From contig DATIWE010000056.1 in NCBI GenBank assembly GCA_035519495.1, forward strand, positions 18,657 to 82,656: a DNA stretch of 64,000 nt. The letters run 5' to 3'. A program made the translations under genes and the position numbers. The notes beneath the pieces are model-generated. The model saw only the letters and a list, made by a program, of their open reading frames with translations, made no database searches and had not been told where the DNA came from. Positions 2-5,516 of the stretch are shown here, piece after piece (the stretch's first letter is position 1; every line of letters starts with the position of its first letter). Source of the DNA: Actinomycetota bacterium. GTDB lineage: Bacteria > Actinomycetota > UBA4738 > HRBIN12.

Positions 2-277
2 GACGTCGATCGATCATGGATGGGTGTGATGAAGATGCCGATCGGGCCATTCGGGATCCTCGACGGCGTCGGACTCGACACGGCGCTGCACATCACGCAG
101 TTCTGGGCGAACGCCCTCAACGATCCGCAGCTGCGGGCGAACGCCGAGCTCCTGCGGACCTACGTGGACCGCGGCGATCTCGGCGTGAAGACCGGCCGGG
201 GCTTCTACGAGTATCCCGACCCCGCGTTCGCCGCTCCGGGCTTCGTCGAGGGCGCGCCCCGATCGGGTTGCGCGTAG
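2..277 (+). CDS. 3-hydroxyacyl-CoA dehydrogenase, C-terminal domain (5' truncated at window edge)
   Basis: The frame is open from base 2. The C-terminal dimerisation-domain motif MGPFGILDGVGLDT and the ending YEYPDPAF are typical of HADH/FadB C-termini. Confidence 0.6.
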   Translation, partial: DVDRSWMGVMKMPIGPFGILDGVGLDTALHITQFWANALNDPQLRANAELLRTYVDRGDLGVKTGRGFYEYPDPAFAAPGFVEGAPRSGCA

Positions 278-287
278 AGTCCGGCGG

Positions 288-1490
288 GTGGGCGAGCACG
301 AGCCACTCCAGGTCGAGGAGCTCGTTCGAGACAACGAGAACCTGCGCGAGCAGCGGCGGGCGATCGGCGAGGTCCTGCGGGCGGTCGCGCGTTCCGAGGG
401 ACTGCAGCCCGTTCTCAACGAGATCGTCGCGGCCGCGAAGCGACTCTGCCACGGCGAGCACGCCCAGCTCTATCTGGCGGACGGCGATCTCTTCGTGGTG
501 TTCTCGCAGAGTGACGACTCCCCCGCCGGCTACGAGTACGCCGAGGACCATCCGCACGCGCGCGACCGCACGACGGTCGTCGGCCGGGTAGCGCTCGCCG
601 GCGAGGCGGTGCAGATCCCCGACGTCCTGGCCGATGCGGAGTACTCGTTCGGAGGACAGCCGATCGCCGGCTATCGCGCGTTGCTGGGCGTCCCGATCGT
701 CCTTGACGGCGAGCTGATCGGTGCGATCGCGGTCGGCCGGAACGTTCCGGGGCCGTTCGCCGACGAACACGTCGAGATCGTCACGACGTTCGCCGATCAG
801 GCCGCGATCGCGATCGCGAACGCACGGCTGATCGACGCCGTCGAGCGACAGCGGACGGAGCTGTCGCGCTTCGTCTCGCCGGCGGTCGCCACCCTCATCT
901 CCTCGTCGGAAGGTGAGCGGTTGCTCGCCGGCCACCGCGGGTACATCTCTTGCTTCTTCTGCGACCTGCGCGGCTTCACGGCGTTCGCGGAGACCGCGGC
1001 GCCGGAAGAGCTGATCGAGGTCCTCCGCAGGTATCACGAGATGCTCGGCGAGCTGATCCCCGACTTCGGCGGGACGCTCGAGCACTTCGCCGGGGACGGC
1101 GTGATGGTGTTCTTCAACGACCCGATCGCCGTCGAGGACCATGAACTCCAGGCGATCCGGCTCGCGATCGCCGAGCAGGAACGGTTCGAGGAGTTGGCGC
1201 AGGGGTGGCGCAAGCGCGGCACGGAACTCGGGCTCGGGATCGGGATCGAGGCGGGGTACGCGACGATCGGGAGGATCGGCTTCGAGGGCCGCTACGACTA
1301 CGGAGCGCTTGGGCCGGTGACGAACCTCGCCGCTCGGCTCAGCACCCTCGCCGCGGCCGGTCAGATCCTGATCGGCCCACACGTGTTCGGGGTCGTCGAG
1401 GAGACGGTGCAGACGGCTCCCGTGGGCGACCTCGAGGTGAAGGGGTTCGGCCGGCCCATCCCGACGTACGAGGTGCTGGGGCTCCGCTAG
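288..1490 (+). CDS. GAF domain-containing class III adenylate/guanylate cyclase
   Basis: 400 aa. The N-terminal half is GAF-like (LYLADGDLFVV...GAIAVGRN). The C-terminal cyclase core is FCDLRGFTAFAE ... HFAGDGVMVFFNDP ... GYATIGRIG. Confidence 0.8.
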   Translation: MGEHEPLQVEELVRDNENLREQRRAIGEVLRAVARSEGLQPVLNEIVAAAKRLCHGEHAQLYLADGDLFVVFSQSDDSPAGYEYAEDHPHARDRTTVVGRVALAGEAVQIPDVLADAEYSFGGQPIAGYRALLGVPIVLDGELIGAIAVGRNVPGPFADEHVEIVTTFADQAAIAIANARLIDAVERQRTELSRFVSPAVATLISSSEGERLLAGHRGYISCFFCDLRGFTAFAETAAPEELIEVLRRYHEMLGELIPDFGGTLEHFAGDGVMVFFNDPIAVEDHELQAIRLAIAEQERFEELAQGWRKRGTELGLGIGIEAGYATIGRIGFEGRYDYGALGPVTNLAARLSTLAAAGQILIGPHVFGVVEETVQTAPVGDLEVKGFGRPIPTYEVLGLR

Positions 1491-2455
1491 GGATCGAGGG
1501 TGATCACGACGTTGCCGACCTTCTGCCCCGTCTCGACGTACCGGTAGGCCTCGATGATCCGGTCCAGGGGATACCGCCGGTCGATGACCGGCTTGAACGC
1601 CTCGGACGCGATCATCCGCTGGAAGAACCGCACCTCTTCTTGGAGGTACTTCCGCGGGATGGGGAACATCACCCGCTTGCCGCCGAGGAGCGGCGTGACG
1701 AGTCCCAGGATCGGATTCAGCGAGAGCGGACCGAGGTCCGACGAGAGGTAGATCCCGCGCGGCTTCAACAGTGGCTTGCACCTGCCGAACGAGCTCTTGC
1801 CGACCGCGTCCATGACCGCGTCGTAGCGCTGCGCGTCCTTCGTGAAGTCCTCGGTCGTGTAGTCGATGGCCCGGTCGGCACCGAGGCCGCGCACCAGCTC
1901 CAGGTGCTTCGTGTCACAGACCGCGGTCACGGTGACGCCGAAGCTCTTCAGGAGCTGGACCGCCGCCGAGCCGATCGCCCCGGTCGCGCCGTAGACCATC
2001 ACGTCCTGCCCGCGCCCGATCTTCGCCTTCCTGATCATCGACATGGCGTAATGCGACCCCTCGGTGCTGGGAGCGGCCTGTTCGTACGTCACGTTGGCCG
2101 GCATCGTCGCCAGCGAGCCGTCGTCGGGCATCGACAGGTACTCGGCGTGCGCGCCGAAGCGCCATTCGCTGAACCCGAACACGTCGTCGCCGACCTCGAA
2201 GGACGTGACGCGGCCGCCCACTTCCTCCACGACCCCGGCGAACTCGCTCCCCAGGATCGTCCGGCGTGGCCTGCGGAGCCCCGTCAGGAGTCGAACGAAG
2301 AACGGCTCGGCCGCCCGGAACCCGCAGTCCGTCCGATTCACCGTCGTCACGTGCACCTTGACGAGCACGTCGTGCTCCCCGACCGGCGGCCTCTCGACGT
2401 CGGCGATCCGAACGACCTCGGGTGGCCCGTAGCGGGTGTGGACGGCTGCCCTCAC
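1487..2455 (-). CDS. NADPH:quinone oxidoreductase / zinc-binding alcohol dehydrogenase (MDR) family protein
   Basis: MDR fold with a Rossmann motif VYGATGAIGSAAVQL and the N-terminus MRAAVHTRYGPPEVV. I chose the internal GTG at 2455. The ORF could extend to the GTG at 2512. There is a 4-nt overlap with the upstream cyclase stop. Confidence 0.7.
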   Translation of the reverse strand: MRAAVHTRYGPPEVVRIADVERPPVGEHDVLVKVHVTTVNRTDCGFRAAEPFFVRLLTGLRRPRRTILGSEFAGVVEEVGGRVTSFEVGDDVFGFSEWRFGAHAEYLSMPDDGSLATMPANVTYEQAAPSTEGSHYAMSMIRKAKIGRGQDVMVYGATGAIGSAAVQLLKSFGVTVTAVCDTKHLELVRGLGADRAIDYTTEDFTKDAQRYDAVMDAVGKSSFGRCKPLLKPRGIYLSSDLGPLSLNPILGLVTPLLGGKRVMFPIPRKYLQEEVRFFQRMIASEAFKPVIDRRYPLDRIIEAYRYVETGQKVGNVVITLDP

Positions 2456-2574
2456 GAGCGCACCGTACCGACTGCCCGTCGCACCGGCTATCGGAGAAGG
2501 TCCTTCCGACACCGAGCCGATAGGCCCAGGCGTTCGCTCATCGGCCCACCACCATGGGGTGGGGAGGTGAGGTC

Positions 2575-3063
2575 ATGCAGGCCCCAACCAAGCAGACGCA
2601 GGTGGCTGCGACCCGCTCGACCCAGCCCCGGCGAACGGCCCGACCCGAAGGGCGGTACCTCTTCGCCGGTGTCAGCGTCGCGAGCATCTGGGTGGCGGTC
2701 GCGCTGGCGAGCATCTGGTCTCCGGACATGACCACCGGCACGCAGCACGACCACTTGGCGATCGCGTCGTTCGCGGACTGGCTGTACGCGGCCCTCGCGA
2801 CCGGACTGGTGCTGATGGCGTTCGGCAGGCGTACGCCGGGCGCCAGCCGCTCGTTGTGGCTCGGCTTCACGGTCGCCGTCGCTTGCATCTGGCTCGCCGT
2901 GGCGGTCGCGAGCATCTTCGCGCCGACCCTGGTGACGGGGACCGACCCGACGACGATCCCGATCGCGGCGTTCGCCGCGCCGATCGGAGGCATCCTCGCG
3001 ACCGCGTTCGCGAGCGTGTTCGCCGCCGGCAGCCAAGGCCGGGATGTCACCGACGAGCGGTAG
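2575..3063 (+). CDS. membrane protein with internal tandem duplication (hypothetical)
   Basis: A strong SD (GGGGAGGTGAGG) precedes the ATG at 2575. It has four predicted TM helices in two homologous halves (VASIWVAVALASIWSPDMTTGT / VACIWLAVAVASIFAPTLVTGT). Confidence 0.55.
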   Translation: MQAPTKQTQVAATRSTQPRRTARPEGRYLFAGVSVASIWVAVALASIWSPDMTTGTQHDHLAIASFADWLYAALATGLVLMAFGRRTPGASRSLWLGFTVAVACIWLAVAVASIFAPTLVTGTDPTTIPIAAFAAPIGGILATAFASVFAAGSQGRDVTDER

Positions 3064-3123
3064 CGCATCCGGACGAACGGAAGGAGGGGCTCGGGCGCCG
3101 CGTTCGCGTCGCGCCGTGCCGGA

Positions 3124-3396
3124 TCAGCCGGTCGCGTGGCCCTGGTTGCTCGCCACCCACCGACGCAGGTTCTCGACGTTCGCGATGGCCTCGGTGGCGT
3201 GCTCGCACGTCATCGGGTCGTCGCACATCGGGTTCCCCTCCATCGTGAAGAAGTTGAACATGCAGTTCGGACACTGCACCTTCAGCTCCTCGGGCAGATA
3301 GGGGCAATCGCCGTACGCGCACGAGCGCTGCCCCTCGCCGGTGGCGATGTCGAAGCCGCAGCCGGGGCACTGCCGGAAACCTTCCCATCTGGCCAT
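3124..3396 (-). CDS. small cysteine-rich protein (8 Cys; putative metal-binding/zinc-ribbon)
   Basis: 90 aa. AGGAGG sits 6 nt upstream of the ATG. The Cys pattern is CPGC ... C-x4-C ... CPNC ... C-x5-C. Confidence 0.6.
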   Translation of the reverse strand: MARWEGFRQCPGCGFDIATGEGQRSCAYGDCPYLPEELKVQCPNCMFNFFTMEGNPMCDDPMTCEHATEAIANVENLRRWVASNQGHATG

Positions 3397-3488
3397 CGTT
3401 CGCCTCCTGGCGAACGATGCGCACGCGTGGGGCCGGTCGCCCAGGTCTCAATGGCCCGGGACGGCTGGGTCGTTCGGCGGCGGGGGGA

Positions 3489-3836
3489 TCAGCTGAAGCT
3501 GAACGTCCCTTCCCAATGCCACAGTTCGTCCGCGTCGGCGGAGACGTCGGCGTTGGCCTCGAACCCCACGAGCGTTCCGGTCCCGCCGAAGAACGTCACC
3601 ACGCCCTTGTCGGCAGCCAGGTCCAGCACGACATGGCCGGTCGCGGTGTTGCCGGATCCCGCGTCCAGGACGATGTCGGTGTCGAGCGTGCCGTCGCCGG
3701 CCGCCTCCGCGTAGATGACCTTCGAGCCGACCCCGATCTCTTCGATGTTCGACGACGTGATCGTGCAGAAGTCACCTGCGGCGCCCTTGTACTCCGAGCA
3801 CTCCTTGGTCATGTGGAGATCTCCACTTCGAGCCAT
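3489..3836 (-). CDS. hypothetical Gly/Thr/Asp-rich 115-aa protein
   Basis: GGAAGGAGG SD upstream of the ATG at 3836. It is co-directional between the CDGSH protein and the Cys-rich protein. Two Cys near the N-terminus lie in CSEYKGAAGDFC. Confidence 0.5.
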   Translation of the reverse strand: MARSGDLHMTKECSEYKGAAGDFCTITSSNIEEIGVGSKVIYAEAAGDGTLDTDIVLDAGSGNTATGHVVLDLAADKGVVTFFGGTGTLVGFEANADVSADADELWHWEGTFSFS

Positions 3837-3932
3837 GCGCCCCTCCTTCCGGCCGGCGGTCCCTCCGGGGATACGAAGGTTGTCGTCACCCTACGCGCTT
3901 ACCACCAGGGCCGCTCGCCGGGGTCCGTCGCG

Positions 3933-4598
3933 CTAGCCGTCGCGGAACCCGATCTCCTGATGCGTGCCGTCGCAGAACGGCTTGTTCTGCGATCCGCCGC
4001 ACCGGCAGAGCGTGACGCGGTGACGGATCTCGTAGGGCTCGCCATCGTCGCCGACCACGGCCACCCCGCCGCGGACCCAGAGCGGCCCGTTGCGGATCGC
4101 CGAGACCGCCGGCGGGTGGTCGAGTTCGTCGGGCTCGGTCGCGCCGTCGGCGAGGAACTCGAGCCGACCCGAAGGACAGAGCATCACCATCGATCGGATC
4201 CGTGCGCGGATCGCGTCGTCGTCGCTTTCGCCGAGCATCGCCCACACCGTCGTGGAACGGTCGCCGCAGTAGCCGGCCCGCGAGCAGAGCGTCAGGTCAT
4301 CGGACATCTCGAAGCCGCTCCCCGGATACGGATACGCCCGTGCCCGGCGGGGTCCTCGATCAGCCACCTCGGTCCCGTCGAACCCCTCCGCACACCCGCG
4401 TCGATCGCACAGTGGCTGCGTGGCCGTCCGCCCACATCGGCAGACCTCGATCGGGTCCGCGTCGGTCGGGACCGGTGTCTCCGGCGCCCAGTCGACCGGC
4501 TCACCGAACTCCGTCTCGATCTGTGCCGTTCGCGACAACGAGACGCCGTGCACCCGGTAGGGGCCGTCGGCTTCGATCTCGATCCGCTGCGGGTCCAT
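3933..4598 (-). CDS. CDGSH iron-sulfur domain protein with divergent 4Fe-4S mono-cluster domain
   Basis: Two CDGSH-type motifs are present (CRCGRTATQPLCD and CRCGGSQNKPFCDGTH). A central Cys cluster LCSRAGYCGDRS ... MLCPSG follows. I chose the start at MDPQ (ATG 4598). The larger track ORF carries upstream Arg-rich junk. Confidence 0.75.
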   Translation of the reverse strand: MDPQRIEIEADGPYRVHGVSLSRTAQIETEFGEPVDWAPETPVPTDADPIEVCRCGRTATQPLCDRRGCAEGFDGTEVADRGPRRARAYPYPGSGFEMSDDLTLCSRAGYCGDRSTTVWAMLGESDDDAIRARIRSMVMLCPSGRLEFLADGATEPDELDHPPAVSAIRNGPLWVRGGVAVVGDDGEPYEIRHRVTLCRCGGSQNKPFCDGTHQEIGFRDG

Positions 4599-4625
4599 CG
4601 CCGGAACCCTAGTACGTGACCCCAC

Positions 4626-5516
4626 GTGTCCGAGACCCACGCTGGGCGCCTCGCTCCTGCCCGACCCGTGGCGCCTGCCCGACCGACCTGCAAGGCTCCC
4701 ACCGTGGACCGACCATCGCCGCGGGATCATGTGGACGTGATCGCGCACTTCGTCGACCTCTGTTCCGCCGACCGGCGGATCGTCGCCGCCTTCCTCTCGG
4801 GATCCAACGCGCGAGACGAGGCCGACGCATATTCGGACCTCGATCTGTGCCTGATCGCCACCGACGCGGCGTACGACGACGTCGTGGCCGACCGGGCGGC
4901 CATCATCGGGAGGCTCGGCGAGCCGCTCTTCTTGGAGAACTTCGGCCGCGGCGACAACGCGTTCTTCATCCTGGCCGACGGCACCGAGGGCGAGCTGTTC
5001 TTCGCACGCGAGGGCGGGCTCGATGCGATCGACGCGGGGCCGTACCGCCCGCTTGTGGACAAGACGGGCATCCTGGCCGGCGCGGTGTTCCCGTTCACCG
5101 AGCCGGACCGTGCGGAGCAGGTCGAGGAGCTCCGCCGCGTCCTTCAGTGGTTCTGGCACGACCTGTCCCACTTCATCGCCGCGCTCGGACGCGGCCAGCT
5201 CTGGTGGGGGGCCGGCCAACTCGAAGCGCTCCGCGCGTACTGCGTGAACCTCGCGCGCATCGAGCAGCACGTCGAAGCGCAGGACGAGCCCTACGAGAAG
5301 CTGGATCACGTGCTGTCGACGACCGAGCTCGAGGTGCTGCGCTCGACCTTCTGTCCCATGGAACGGCGCGCGATGCTCGAAGCCGCGAGTGACATCCTCG
5401 CCTTCTATCGGGAACGGGCACCCATCGTGGCCAAGGCGTACGGGTTGCCCTATCCCGCCGAGCTCGCGGAGCTGATGTGCACCCGCTTCGACGAGCTCGA
5501 GCCTGCCTCGGGCTGA
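4626..5516 (+). CDS. nucleotidyltransferase, ANT(6)/AadK-like aminoglycoside adenylyltransferase family
   Basis: The NTase motif is RIVAAFLSGSNARDEADAYSDLDLCLIA and the length is about 280 aa, as in ANT(6). The true start is probably the internal VDVIAH near 4734. The 3' end overlaps the convergent membrane-protein gene by about 67 nt. Confidence 0.55.
   Translation: MSETHAGRLAPARPVAPARPTCKAPTVDRPSPRDHVDVIAHFVDLCSADRRIVAAFLSGSNARDEADAYSDLDLCLIATDAAYDDVVADRAAIIGRLGEPLFLENFGRGDNAFFILADGTEGELFFAREGGLDAIDAGPYRPLVDKTGILAGAVFPFTEPDRAEQVEELRRVLQWFWHDLSHFIAALGRGQLWWGAGQLEALRAYCVNLARIEQHVEAQDEPYEKLDHVLSTTELEVLRSTFCPMERRAMLEAASDILAFYRERAPIVAKAYGLPYPAELAELMCTRFDELEPASG

Follow-up and report, generated by a model that had tools for sequence, protein, structure and literature searches.

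Among the CDGSH iron-sulfur proteins, type 7, subtype CDC, is defined by a DUF1271/Fer4_19 domain with a CISD domain on each side (Lin et al. 2011, PLoS One 6:e24790, PMC3174974). A different group, the allene oxide cyclase/dirigent superfamily, includes PodA (5k21), a bacterial pyocyanin demethylase, AbyU (5dyq), a Diels-Alderase, YPO0625 (7tmu), and plant members of about 160-190 aa. Cys4 sites of the zinc-ribbon or rubredoxin-knuckle kind constitute a third point of reference, and a fourth is provided by the Rrf2 regulators NsrR and IscR, the control of nirK by NsrR being established in other bacteria (Rodionov et al. 2005, PMC1274295). The locus described here lies in a 64,000-nucleotide stretch of DNA from an Actinomycetota bacterium (the window) and contains three small minus-strand genes, denoted A, B and C (Table 1), whose products can each be compared with one or more of these systems. 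Very probably, A, B and C are small genes, independent and unrelated to one another, which became same-strand neighbors through a recent local rearrangement, and they do not constitute a conserved operon or functional module.

Table 1. Features of the A, B, C locus, in window coordinates.
Feature	Position	Strand	Basis or remark
Gene A	3933-4598	-	221 aa
N-terminal CDGSH-like motif of A, CRCGRTATQPLCDRRGC	4392-4442	-	homologue alignment
Fer4_19 (DUF1271) ferredoxin-like middle domain of A	4152-4322	-	Pfam, residues 93-149
C-terminal canonical CDGSH domain of A, CRCGGSQNKPFCDGTH	3957-4091	-	Pfam
Stretch without counterpart in closest relative, 447 bp	3482-3928	-	blastn against L083/L084
Shine-Dalgarno of B, GGAAGGAGG	3842-3850	-	read from sequence
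Gene B	3489-3836	-	115 aa
Shine-Dalgarno of C, AGGAGG	3403-3408	-	read from sequence
Perfect 11-bp hairpin, CAUCGUUCGCC-AGGA-GGCGAACGAUG	3394-3419	-	sequesters start codon and Shine-Dalgarno of gene C
Gene C	3124-3396	-	90 aa
C repeat 1, CPGC-x12-C-x4-C, residues 8-33	3298-3375	-	hhalign
C repeat 2, CPNC-x12-C-x5-C, residues 40-66	3199-3279	-	hhalign
169-aa predicted membrane protein gene	2554-3063	+	convergent with C
Zn-dependent dehydrogenase/quinone-oxidoreductase-like gene	1487-2455	-	Pfam ADH_N + ADH_zinc_N_2

The first description of the locus, made from the letters of the DNA only (referred to here as the sequence-only reading), reported three minus-strand genes about 95 nt apart, with strong Shine-Dalgarno sites in front of B and C. 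Both sites are indeed present, and the gaps amount to 96 and 92 nt. High-GC DNA is rich in long shadow reading frames, several of which overlap this region on the plus strand, and it could be argued on this basis that B and C are spurious high-GC frames, a concern that the sequence-only reading had itself linked to a possible lack of homologues. It is practically certain that they are not. Protein searches recovered 790 homologues of B and 143 of C, with identities of 55-100% and invariant residues over the whole length. The GC content at codon positions 1/2/3 is 0.70/0.55/0.86 in A, 0.59/0.48/0.86 in B and 0.56/0.51/0.91 in C, resembling that of the flanking genes, and in B and C the third-position values (0.86-0.91) contrast with those of the second position (0.48-0.51). 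The Shine-Dalgarno sites are conserved, that of B being kept upstream of its homologues in four unrelated contexts, and B has a predicted fold with a pLDDT of 92. As for the surroundings, the true start of the Zn-dependent dehydrogenase gene in the window is probably the GTG at 2455, and an Rfam scan of positions 2300-5200 gave no credible match.

As judged from its sequence, the product of gene A is a CDGSH iron-sulfur protein of type 7, subtype CDC. Pfam zf-CDGSH matches it twice (E 1e-28) and Fer4_19 matches between both CDGSH stretches (29.5 bits, the Pfam cutoff being 24), which yields the order CISD, DUF1271/Fer4_19, CISD that defines the subtype and gives domain names to what the sequence-only reading had perceived as two CDGSH-type motifs plus an additional set of Fe-S cysteines. 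Homologues number more than 7,800, the majority sharing this Pfam pair and named "CDGSH iron-sulfur domain-containing protein". When both copies are set against the CDGSH consensus, C-x-C-x2-(S/T)-x3-P-x-C-D-G-(S/A/T)-H, the C-terminal one fits: its motif is canonical (CxCxxSxxxPxCDGTH), residues 170-214 are the best zf-CDGSH stretch of the protein, covering the full model (1-48/48), and its His is retained in 119 of 120 homologues. The N-terminal copy deviates from the consensus and from the described subtype, since it reads CDRRGC, lacking the usual His and presenting a Cys, C69, one residue past that position. Among the 120 closest homologues, this ligand position holds the His in 82 cases, a Cys in place of the His in 15, a Cys at +1 (the type found in the window) in 14 and neither in nine. 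In the middle domain, the homologue alignment reveals three invariant cysteines, C105, C111 and C141, the last followed by Pro, together with an invariant D113. The two CDGSH domains, presumed by homology to be of the [2Fe-2S] type, would flank the ferredoxin-like DUF1271/Fer4_19 domain, and one further cluster, [3Fe-4S] or [4Fe-4S], is predicted. Most likely, A would transfer electrons or clusters as a small soluble protein whose partners vary among lineages. To our knowledge, neither function nor partner is known for any protein of subtype CDC.

The Gly/Thr/Asp-rich composition attributed to B is borne out, but the label of metal-binding protein, which it had received together with A and C, is not. 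Across its 790 homologues, which are conserved from residue 1, just two Cys and a single His of B are invariant, and B shows no known metal-binding motif. No family match was obtained for B in Pfam or NCBIfam scans, a PDB sequence-profile search gave nothing significant, and in 30 members of the family neither Pfam Dirigent (PF03018), Allene_ox_cyc nor related models matched even at E<=1, where only noise appeared. The AlphaFold2 model, in turn, has eight strands (pLDDT 92.4, pTM 0.81), and its best Foldseek matches in the PDB are dirigent proteins, allene oxide cyclases, the pyocyanin demethylase, AbyU and YPO0625 (probability 0.97-1.0, TMq 0.43-0.67). With high confidence, B is therefore predicted to be an eight-stranded antiparallel β-barrel of the allene oxide cyclase/dirigent type, and of similar size. 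One of its late strands carries GGTGxFxGF, which resembles a motif typical of dirigent-like barrels. B differs from the known members in several respects: no Pfam family can be detected for it at the sequence level, it falls short of the length of the plant proteins, it lacks a signal peptide, and its resemblance to the superfamily is characterized by moderate TM-scores and a sequence identity of about 10%. According to the model, then, B is not a metal protein; it would most likely be a solitary cytosolic protein that has a small organic molecule as its ligand, either bound within or at the barrel or acted upon without a cofactor. A comparison of five contexts revealed nothing conserved in front of B except the Shine-Dalgarno.

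The case of C is different, because the cysteines on which the sequence-only reading had based its description, eight of them in four pairs, are all invariant in the 143 homologues (C10, C13, C26, C31, C42, C45, C58 and C64, in the pattern CPGC-x12-C-x4-C-x10-CPNC-x12-C-x5-C) and are kept by divergent members of the family. When the two halves of the family alignment were compared by hhalign, they matched each other with a probability of 93.6% (E 2e-7), and the sequence thus indicates that C consists of two tandem CxxC-x12-C-x4/5-C modules, derived from a tandem duplication, followed by a C-terminal helix. Given this duplicated Cys4 module with eight invariant Cys, C probably binds two metal ions; it would most likely hold two tetrahedral Cys4 sites, zinc being the most probable metal and iron an alternative. 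Each half is reminiscent of a zinc ribbon or rubredoxin knuckle, in that a CPxC knuckle is followed, after 12 residues, by another pair of Cys; the AlphaFold2 model (pLDDT 74) shows short β-hairpins, and a single JGI record names a homologue of C "RPC12/RpoP". However, the second pair is C-x4/5-C and not CxxC. No match to C was found in Pfam or NCBIfam, zinc-ribbon families included, none by Foldseek of the model against the PDB, and none of significance in a PDB profile search. A PHD-finger match (E 0.019) in the PDB profile searches of both B and C was rejected, its Cys residues not being aligned. The family is small, unannotated and found in uncultured Actinomycetota, roughly 130 genomes carrying C: when its profile was run in an exhaustive HMM search against 1.84 billion proteins, only 90 clusters at 50% identity were delimited, and nothing beyond the family itself. 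Long multi-stretch matches from the same profile, such as P0437 with its CPMHPE...CPKCGM repeats, correspond to unrelated metal-binding repeats.

The sequence-only reading had joined these three genes in one operon that would function in Fe-S/Zn redox chemistry or cluster transfer. On such a view, the role of Fe-S carrier would fall to A, with B and C as accessory metal proteins. Several features are consistent with such a proposal: the genes share one strand, with gaps of 92-96 nt and strong Shine-Dalgarno sites, a promoter/terminator scan predicted no terminator-like hairpin between them on the minus strand, A is a genuine Fe-S protein by family, and C has its eight invariant Cys. The same scan, which is poorly suited to Actinomycetota, detected no sigma-70-like promoter among the three genes. 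In spite of these features, the operon is very unlikely, and the argument comes, apart from the predicted enzyme- or ligand-binding barrel of B, which has no metal motif, from the distribution of the genes elsewhere. Neither A nor B was found near C in any of 80 species-level genomes carrying a C homologue (flanks of up to 10 kb on both sides). Of 80 metagenome contigs with a B homologue, the sole one carrying A and C is the window's own contig (L093, 100% identical); with this left out, A or C was near B in 0/79, the contigs providing at least 800 nt upstream of B at 52/80 loci and at least 500 nt downstream at 54/80. On four long B contigs, representing four different contexts, B is solitary in each and A or C is found in none (0/4). 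Likewise, the trio is repeated at none of nine A-anchored loci, which correspond to six distinct contexts; the genes downstream of A homologues with 90%, 83%, 77%, 59% and 56% identity differ, and include a Zn-dehydrogenase, a GAF histidine kinase, a PNPOx-like gene together with an RlmN-like one, and others. The co-occurrence that a functional trio had been expected to display in other genomes is, in consequence, absent at every locus considered. A Zn-dehydrogenase paralogue is located within about 0.6-1.4 kb of B in 6/79 B contigs; this proximity was not counted as linkage because these contigs form two groups of related sequences with loose spacing. Among the 80 genomes with C, the 169-aa membrane-protein gene is again next to C only in L031 and L035.

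The origin of the arrangement became apparent from the closest relative (L083/L084), with about 90% protein identity to the window. Here the order is A, ADH-cyclase, C-membrane gene, as opposed to A, B, C-membrane gene, ADH-cyclase in the window: the Zn-dehydrogenase gene starts within 10 nt of the A stop, C is found at a distance of 2.3 kb, and the region lacks B, all of which argues against the operon. The blastn homology blocks between window and relative end at 3481 and resume at 3929, and the intervening 447 bp, containing gene B and a 92-nt leader, have no counterpart in the relative and are therefore considered a lineage-specific insertion. Homology to other B loci is restricted to the ORF and 13-60 nt upstream of its start, and does not extend past the stop codon; around the insertion, no repeats were seen that could represent a mobile-element signature. 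The block at 2449-3481, comprising C and the 169-aa membrane gene, is collinear with L083 10871-11899, and a breakpoint lies beside the Zn-dehydrogenase gene, at window position 2460. The statement of the sequence-only reading that no enzymatic partner is encoded thus depends on the lineage, given the dehydrogenase gene next to A in the relative; its single Fe-S/Zn module is contradicted by the altered gene order, as it is by the lack of co-occurrence and by the fold of B. With A, B and C taken as independent neighbors, read-through co-transcription may still occur here, as no terminator-like site is predicted between them, and, although no interaction among the three proteins is predicted, a functional one in this lineage is conceivable, two of them being plausibly metal- or cluster-binding.

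The leader of C presents features of its own. The hairpin that buries its Shine-Dalgarno and AUG (Table 1) is part of a region, 3385-3430, with a folding energy of -23.6 kcal/mol (z = -3.8), which none of 200 shuffles equaled. The hairpin is retained in L083/L084 with one compensatory swap, and it is lineage-specific, being not present at other C loci. A TA-containing, -10-like element is found 8-20 nt upstream of the C Shine-Dalgarno at 38/79 loci, compared with 6/79 control windows, and C would usually be transcribed independently from its own promoter.

A further clue to C came from its neighborhood in other genomes. In 18 of the 80, C is directly preceded by an Rrf2-family gene with the same orientation, about 90 nt away, and the encoded proteins carry a C-x6-C-x5-C triad like that of cluster-binding Rrf2 regulators. 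In 13 of these 18, a NirK-like gene diverges from the Rrf2 gene, its product matching nearly the whole TIGR02376 model (E about 1e-58), and the nirK-rrf2 intergenic region contains a conserved near-palindrome, AACGTAGAGTA-N3-TACTTAACGT, as a candidate operator. These observations, together with the precedent of nirK regulation by NsrR, could be integrated by assuming that C alone, as a small Cys8 metal protein, takes part in a nitrosative or redox stress response, being controlled by an NsrR/IscR-like Rrf2 protein or cooperating with it and with a copper nitrite reductase of the NirK-like kind; the place of C in the window would then reflect a secondary relocation. This seems unlikely on present evidence. 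A wider synteny (LarC, DUF4446, a histidine kinase) is common to all 18 loci, which may for this reason descend from a single clade with one inherited arrangement; the Rrf2 gene and C are separated by a terminator-like, GC-rich hairpin that is conserved; the candidate operator was not found upstream of C; 62/80 loci have no Rrf2 gene beside C; and the 64-kb window contains no Rrf2 or NirK homologue. The NirK-like proteins score 180-200 bits, below the NCBIfam equivalog cutoff of 296, and the Rrf2 proteins match the superfamily model only, below the IscR and NsrR cutoffs. The resemblance to NsrR/IscR systems consists of the nirK-like/rrf2/C arrangement, with its candidate operator, in 13/80 genomes, an arrangement absent from the window and in which C is linked to the regulator by adjacency only. 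The tie to nitrosative or redox stress is a weak lead. Quite improbable is the more elaborate version, that C founds an undescribed tandem-Cys4 family confined to uncultured soil Actinomycetota and located in an Rrf2 (NsrR-like)/NirK nitrosative-stress locus, where it would serve as a thiol- or metal-based sensor of, or protectant against, NO or nitrite, with a secondary relocation in the window.

The reading of A, B and C as recent chance neighbors carries a caution for high-GC Actinomycetota, in which small genes that share a strand and have strong ribosome-binding sites can mimic an operon; in the present case, a relative at about 90% identity sufficed to expose the chance adjacency. Two unannotated families of small proteins, that of B (about 790 homologues) and that of C (about 90 clusters at 50% identity), are now delimited, and the natural His/Cys variation of the fourth N-terminal ligand in type 7 CDGSH proteins may be of interest for studies of CDGSH cluster stability. 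Finally, the nirK-like/rrf2/C arrangement is recurrent and offers a testable role for C in nitrite or NO stress.

Three small minus-strand genes, here called A, B and C (see the table), had been read from sequence alone as an operon encoding an Fe-S/Zn redox or cluster-transfer module. The description of the ORFs themselves was accurate, since their coordinates, sizes, strand and ribosome-binding sites were found exactly as stated, with intergenic gaps of 96 and 92 nt. Their codon-position GC (GC3 0.86-0.91, GC2 0.48-0.55, in a window of 71% GC) is the pattern of real genes, and homologs are numerous: more than 7,800 for A, 790 for B (one of them 100% identical and annotated in an NCBI Actinomycetota MAG) and 143 for C, with E-values down to 1e-57. 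Given this codon pattern and these homologs, B and C are genuine conserved genes and not spurious ORFs.

Coordinates of the features (window positions unless a homologous locus, L, is named; L083 is from the closest relative of the window)
Feature	Position	Strand	Remark
Gene A	3933-4598	minus	221 aa
N-terminal CDGSH motif region of A	4392-4442	minus	CDRRGC
Gene B	3489-3836	minus	115 aa; GGAAGGAGG precedes start
Gene C	3124-3396	minus	90 aa; AGGAGG precedes start
Perfect 11-bp hairpin CAUCGUUCGCC-AGGA-GGCGAACGAUG	3394-3419	minus	encloses Shine-Dalgarno and start codon of C
Dehydrogenase ORF	1487-2512	minus	341 aa
Nucleotidyltransferase	4626-5516	plus	296 aa; divergent from A
A + divergent nucleotidyltransferase	3929-5499		L083 8670-7104
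GAF-cyclase + dehydrogenase	273-2460		L083 10856-8669
169-aa membrane protein + C	2449-3481		L083 11899-10871
B + leader	3482-3928		no L083 counterpart
Single-domain CISD, 69 aa	L085:8856-9065	minus	near type 7 CDC gene
DUF1271-CISD, subtype DC, 159 aa	L086:1265-1744	plus	near type 7 CDC gene
Near-palindrome AACGTAGAGTA-N3-TACTTAACGT	within L013:3474-3568, L006:9319-9410		also in 10 further loci; between divergent NirK-like and Rrf2 genes
Hairpin GGGCCG-(AA/TT)-CGGCCC	within L013:4064-4160		same spacer in ~17 other loci

The operon or module proposal, however, failed the co-occurrence check, whichever gene served as the anchor. With C as the anchor, 80 loci were examined, each from a separate species-level genome and with flanks reaching up to 10 kb on either side; tblastn detected C in every one of them and neither A nor B in any. 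Four long contigs carrying B represented four unrelated neighborhoods, with B solitary in each, and among 80 B-bearing metagenome contigs (the upstream flank of B reached 800 nt or more in 52 and the downstream flank 500 nt or more in 54), A and C were present only in L093, whose 100% identity to the window marks it as coming from the same organism. When A was the anchor, the gene 3' of it varied at each step of divergence, being a Zn-dependent dehydrogenase at 90% identity, a GAF histidine kinase at 83%, a PNPOx-like gene and then an RlmN-like radical-SAM gene at 77%, and yet other contexts at 59% and 56%. A Zn-dehydrogenase-family paralog (33-38% identical to that of the window) lies approximately 0.6-1.4 kb from B in 6 of 79 metagenome contigs (L096, L101, L107, L150, L152 and L159), a proximity that is probably not meaningful because the six fall into two sets of mutually related contigs.

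The comparison with the closest relative (L083/L084, at about 90% identity, with individual proteins 87-96% identical to those of the window) was decisive for the operon question. DNA alignment and tblastn showed that two adjacent blocks, the GAF-cyclase with the Zn-dehydrogenase and the 169-aa membrane protein with C, are swapped: the order is A, dehydrogenase-cyclase, C-membrane protein in the relative, where no more than 10 nt separate the A stop from the dehydrogenase start, and A, B, C-membrane protein, dehydrogenase-cyclase in the window. The breakpoints (263-273, 2449-2460, 3481 and 3929) fall at gene boundaries, and the alignments at both junctions share approximately 12 bp (2449-2460). 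These differing orders and the unmatched stretch show that the trio arose by a block transposition, plus a 447-bp stretch holding B that is absent from the relative and is homologous to other B loci only over the ORF and 13-60 nt upstream. The A-B-C arrangement is young and unique to the lineage of the window, and beyond this recent juxtaposition no evidence links the three genes. A window scan found no terminator-like hairpin between them, so their co-transcription in this genome is possible.

Two observations concern the flanking genes. Homology of the dehydrogenase ORF to the relative begins at GTG 2455 (residue 20), which adjoins breakpoint 2460, and the ORF is probably annotated too long. 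The gene divergent from A is of the Adenyl_transf / lincosamide-aminoglycoside nucleotidyltransferase type (Pfam E 3.7e-11), and this pairing is kept in L084.

Regarding gene A, Pfam confirmed the two CDGSH stretches (zf-CDGSH, E 1e-28) and the divergent 4Fe-4S mono-cluster domain (Fer4_19, or DUF1271; residues 93-149, 29.5 bits, cutoff 24) recognized in the sequence-only reading. A DUF1271 domain between two CDGSH domains characterizes subtype CDC of the type 7 CDGSH iron-sulfur domain (CISD) proteins (Lin et al. 2011, PMC3174974); A shares this defining architecture and is a known kind of protein. Some genomes also have additional CDGSH paralogs, lying no more than a few kb from their type 7 CDC gene. 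In alignments, the C-terminal CDGSH motif of A is canonical (CRCGGSQNKPFCDGTH), and its His is kept in 119 of the 120 nearest homologs (P0241-P0360). The fourth cluster ligand of the N-terminal domain, by contrast, varies naturally among type 7 CDGSH proteins: across these same 120 proteins, 82 have His, 29 have Cys (15 at the His position and 14 at +1, as in the CDRRGC of the window's clade) and 9 have neither. Invariant in the middle domain are three Cys (C-x5-C ... CP) and one Asp, a pattern that, judged by ferredoxins in general, fits a [3Fe-4S] or an Asp-ligated [4Fe-4S] cluster. We infer that A transfers electrons or clusters and that its partners are specific to each lineage.

B and C each represent a small unannotated family whose fold type can be recognized, and neither matches a Pfam or NCBIfam family. 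For B, no sequence family matched even at E<=1. The family is conserved from Met1, its invariant residues include K11, E12, C13, S14, C24, D54, H68, D72 and W108, and a GGTGxFxGF motif is present. The AlphaFold2 model is confident (pLDDT 92.4, pTM 0.81) and all-beta, with eight strands; its top PDB matches (E ~1e-3 to 5e-2, prob 0.97-1.0, TMq 0.43-0.67) are dirigent proteins (8th2, 4rev, 6ooc), allene oxide cyclases (4h6a, 1z8k), the pyocyanin demethylase PodA (5k21), the Diels-Alderase AbyU (5dyq) and YPO0625 (7tmu). B cannot be assigned to the Dirigent or allene oxide cyclase families of Pfam, since it resembles these proteins in predicted fold but lacks a sequence match. From the barrel model and fold matches, B would work as a small barrel that binds a ligand or catalyzes a reaction without a cofactor; neither its sequence nor its predicted fold gives any indication of metal binding.

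In C, eight Cys are invariant across the 143 homologs and are also kept in the most divergent members, which came from an exhaustive HMM search of 1.84 billion representatives that yielded only 90 clusters. The two halves of the protein are homologous (QCPGCGFDIATGEGQRSC versus QCPNCMFNFFTMEGNPMC; hhalign probability 93.6%, E 2e-7), and the model (pLDDT 74) consists of two similar knuckle/hairpin units and a C-terminal helix (residues 65-87). C matched no solved structure and no curated family. C most likely forms two Cys4 metal sites, most probably for zinc and possibly for rubredoxin-like iron.

A TA-containing, -10-like hexamer (TACCAC, TACGAA, TATGAC and similar) lies 8-20 nt upstream of the C Shine-Dalgarno in 38 of 79 loci, versus 6 of 79 control windows (background TA frequency ~1%); the C gene of the window is without it. 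This enrichment suggests that C is usually transcribed from a promoter of its own, with a very short leader. The 11-bp hairpin at the C start (folding of 3385-3430: -23.6 kcal/mol, z = -3.8) is kept in the 96%-identical L083/L084, with one compensatory C-G to G-C swap, one wobble and one mismatch, and is absent from the other C loci compared. It may serve to control translation in this lineage specifically.

Downstream, C has varied neighbors, among them an amidohydrolase (13 loci), a histidine kinase (11) and LarC (7). Directly upstream of C, on the same strand and approximately 90 nt away, an Rrf2-family regulator with a conserved C-x6-C-x5-C triad was found in 15 of 75 called neighbors and, by tblastn, in 18 of 80 loci, which have a wider gene order in common and so may represent a single clade. 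In 13 of the 18, a NirK-like copper nitrite reductase with a C-terminal cupredoxin domain (TIGR02376, E ~1e-58; 180-200 bits, under the 296-bit cutoff) is divergent from the Rrf2 gene, an arrangement resembling the NsrR-nirK pairing known elsewhere (PMC1274295). The spacer between these two genes holds the conserved near-palindrome, a candidate Rrf2 operator that was not seen upstream of C. A GC-rich hairpin, also conserved and followed by TCTC, separates the Rrf2 stop from the start of C; it looks terminator-like, though it lacks a U-tract. Neither Rrf2 nor NirK is encoded in the window. The shared synteny, the hairpin, the lack of the palindrome upstream of C and this absence all call for caution in tying C to the Rrf2-nirK loci. 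One idea that survives, at low probability, is that C would take part in a nitrosative or redox stress response.
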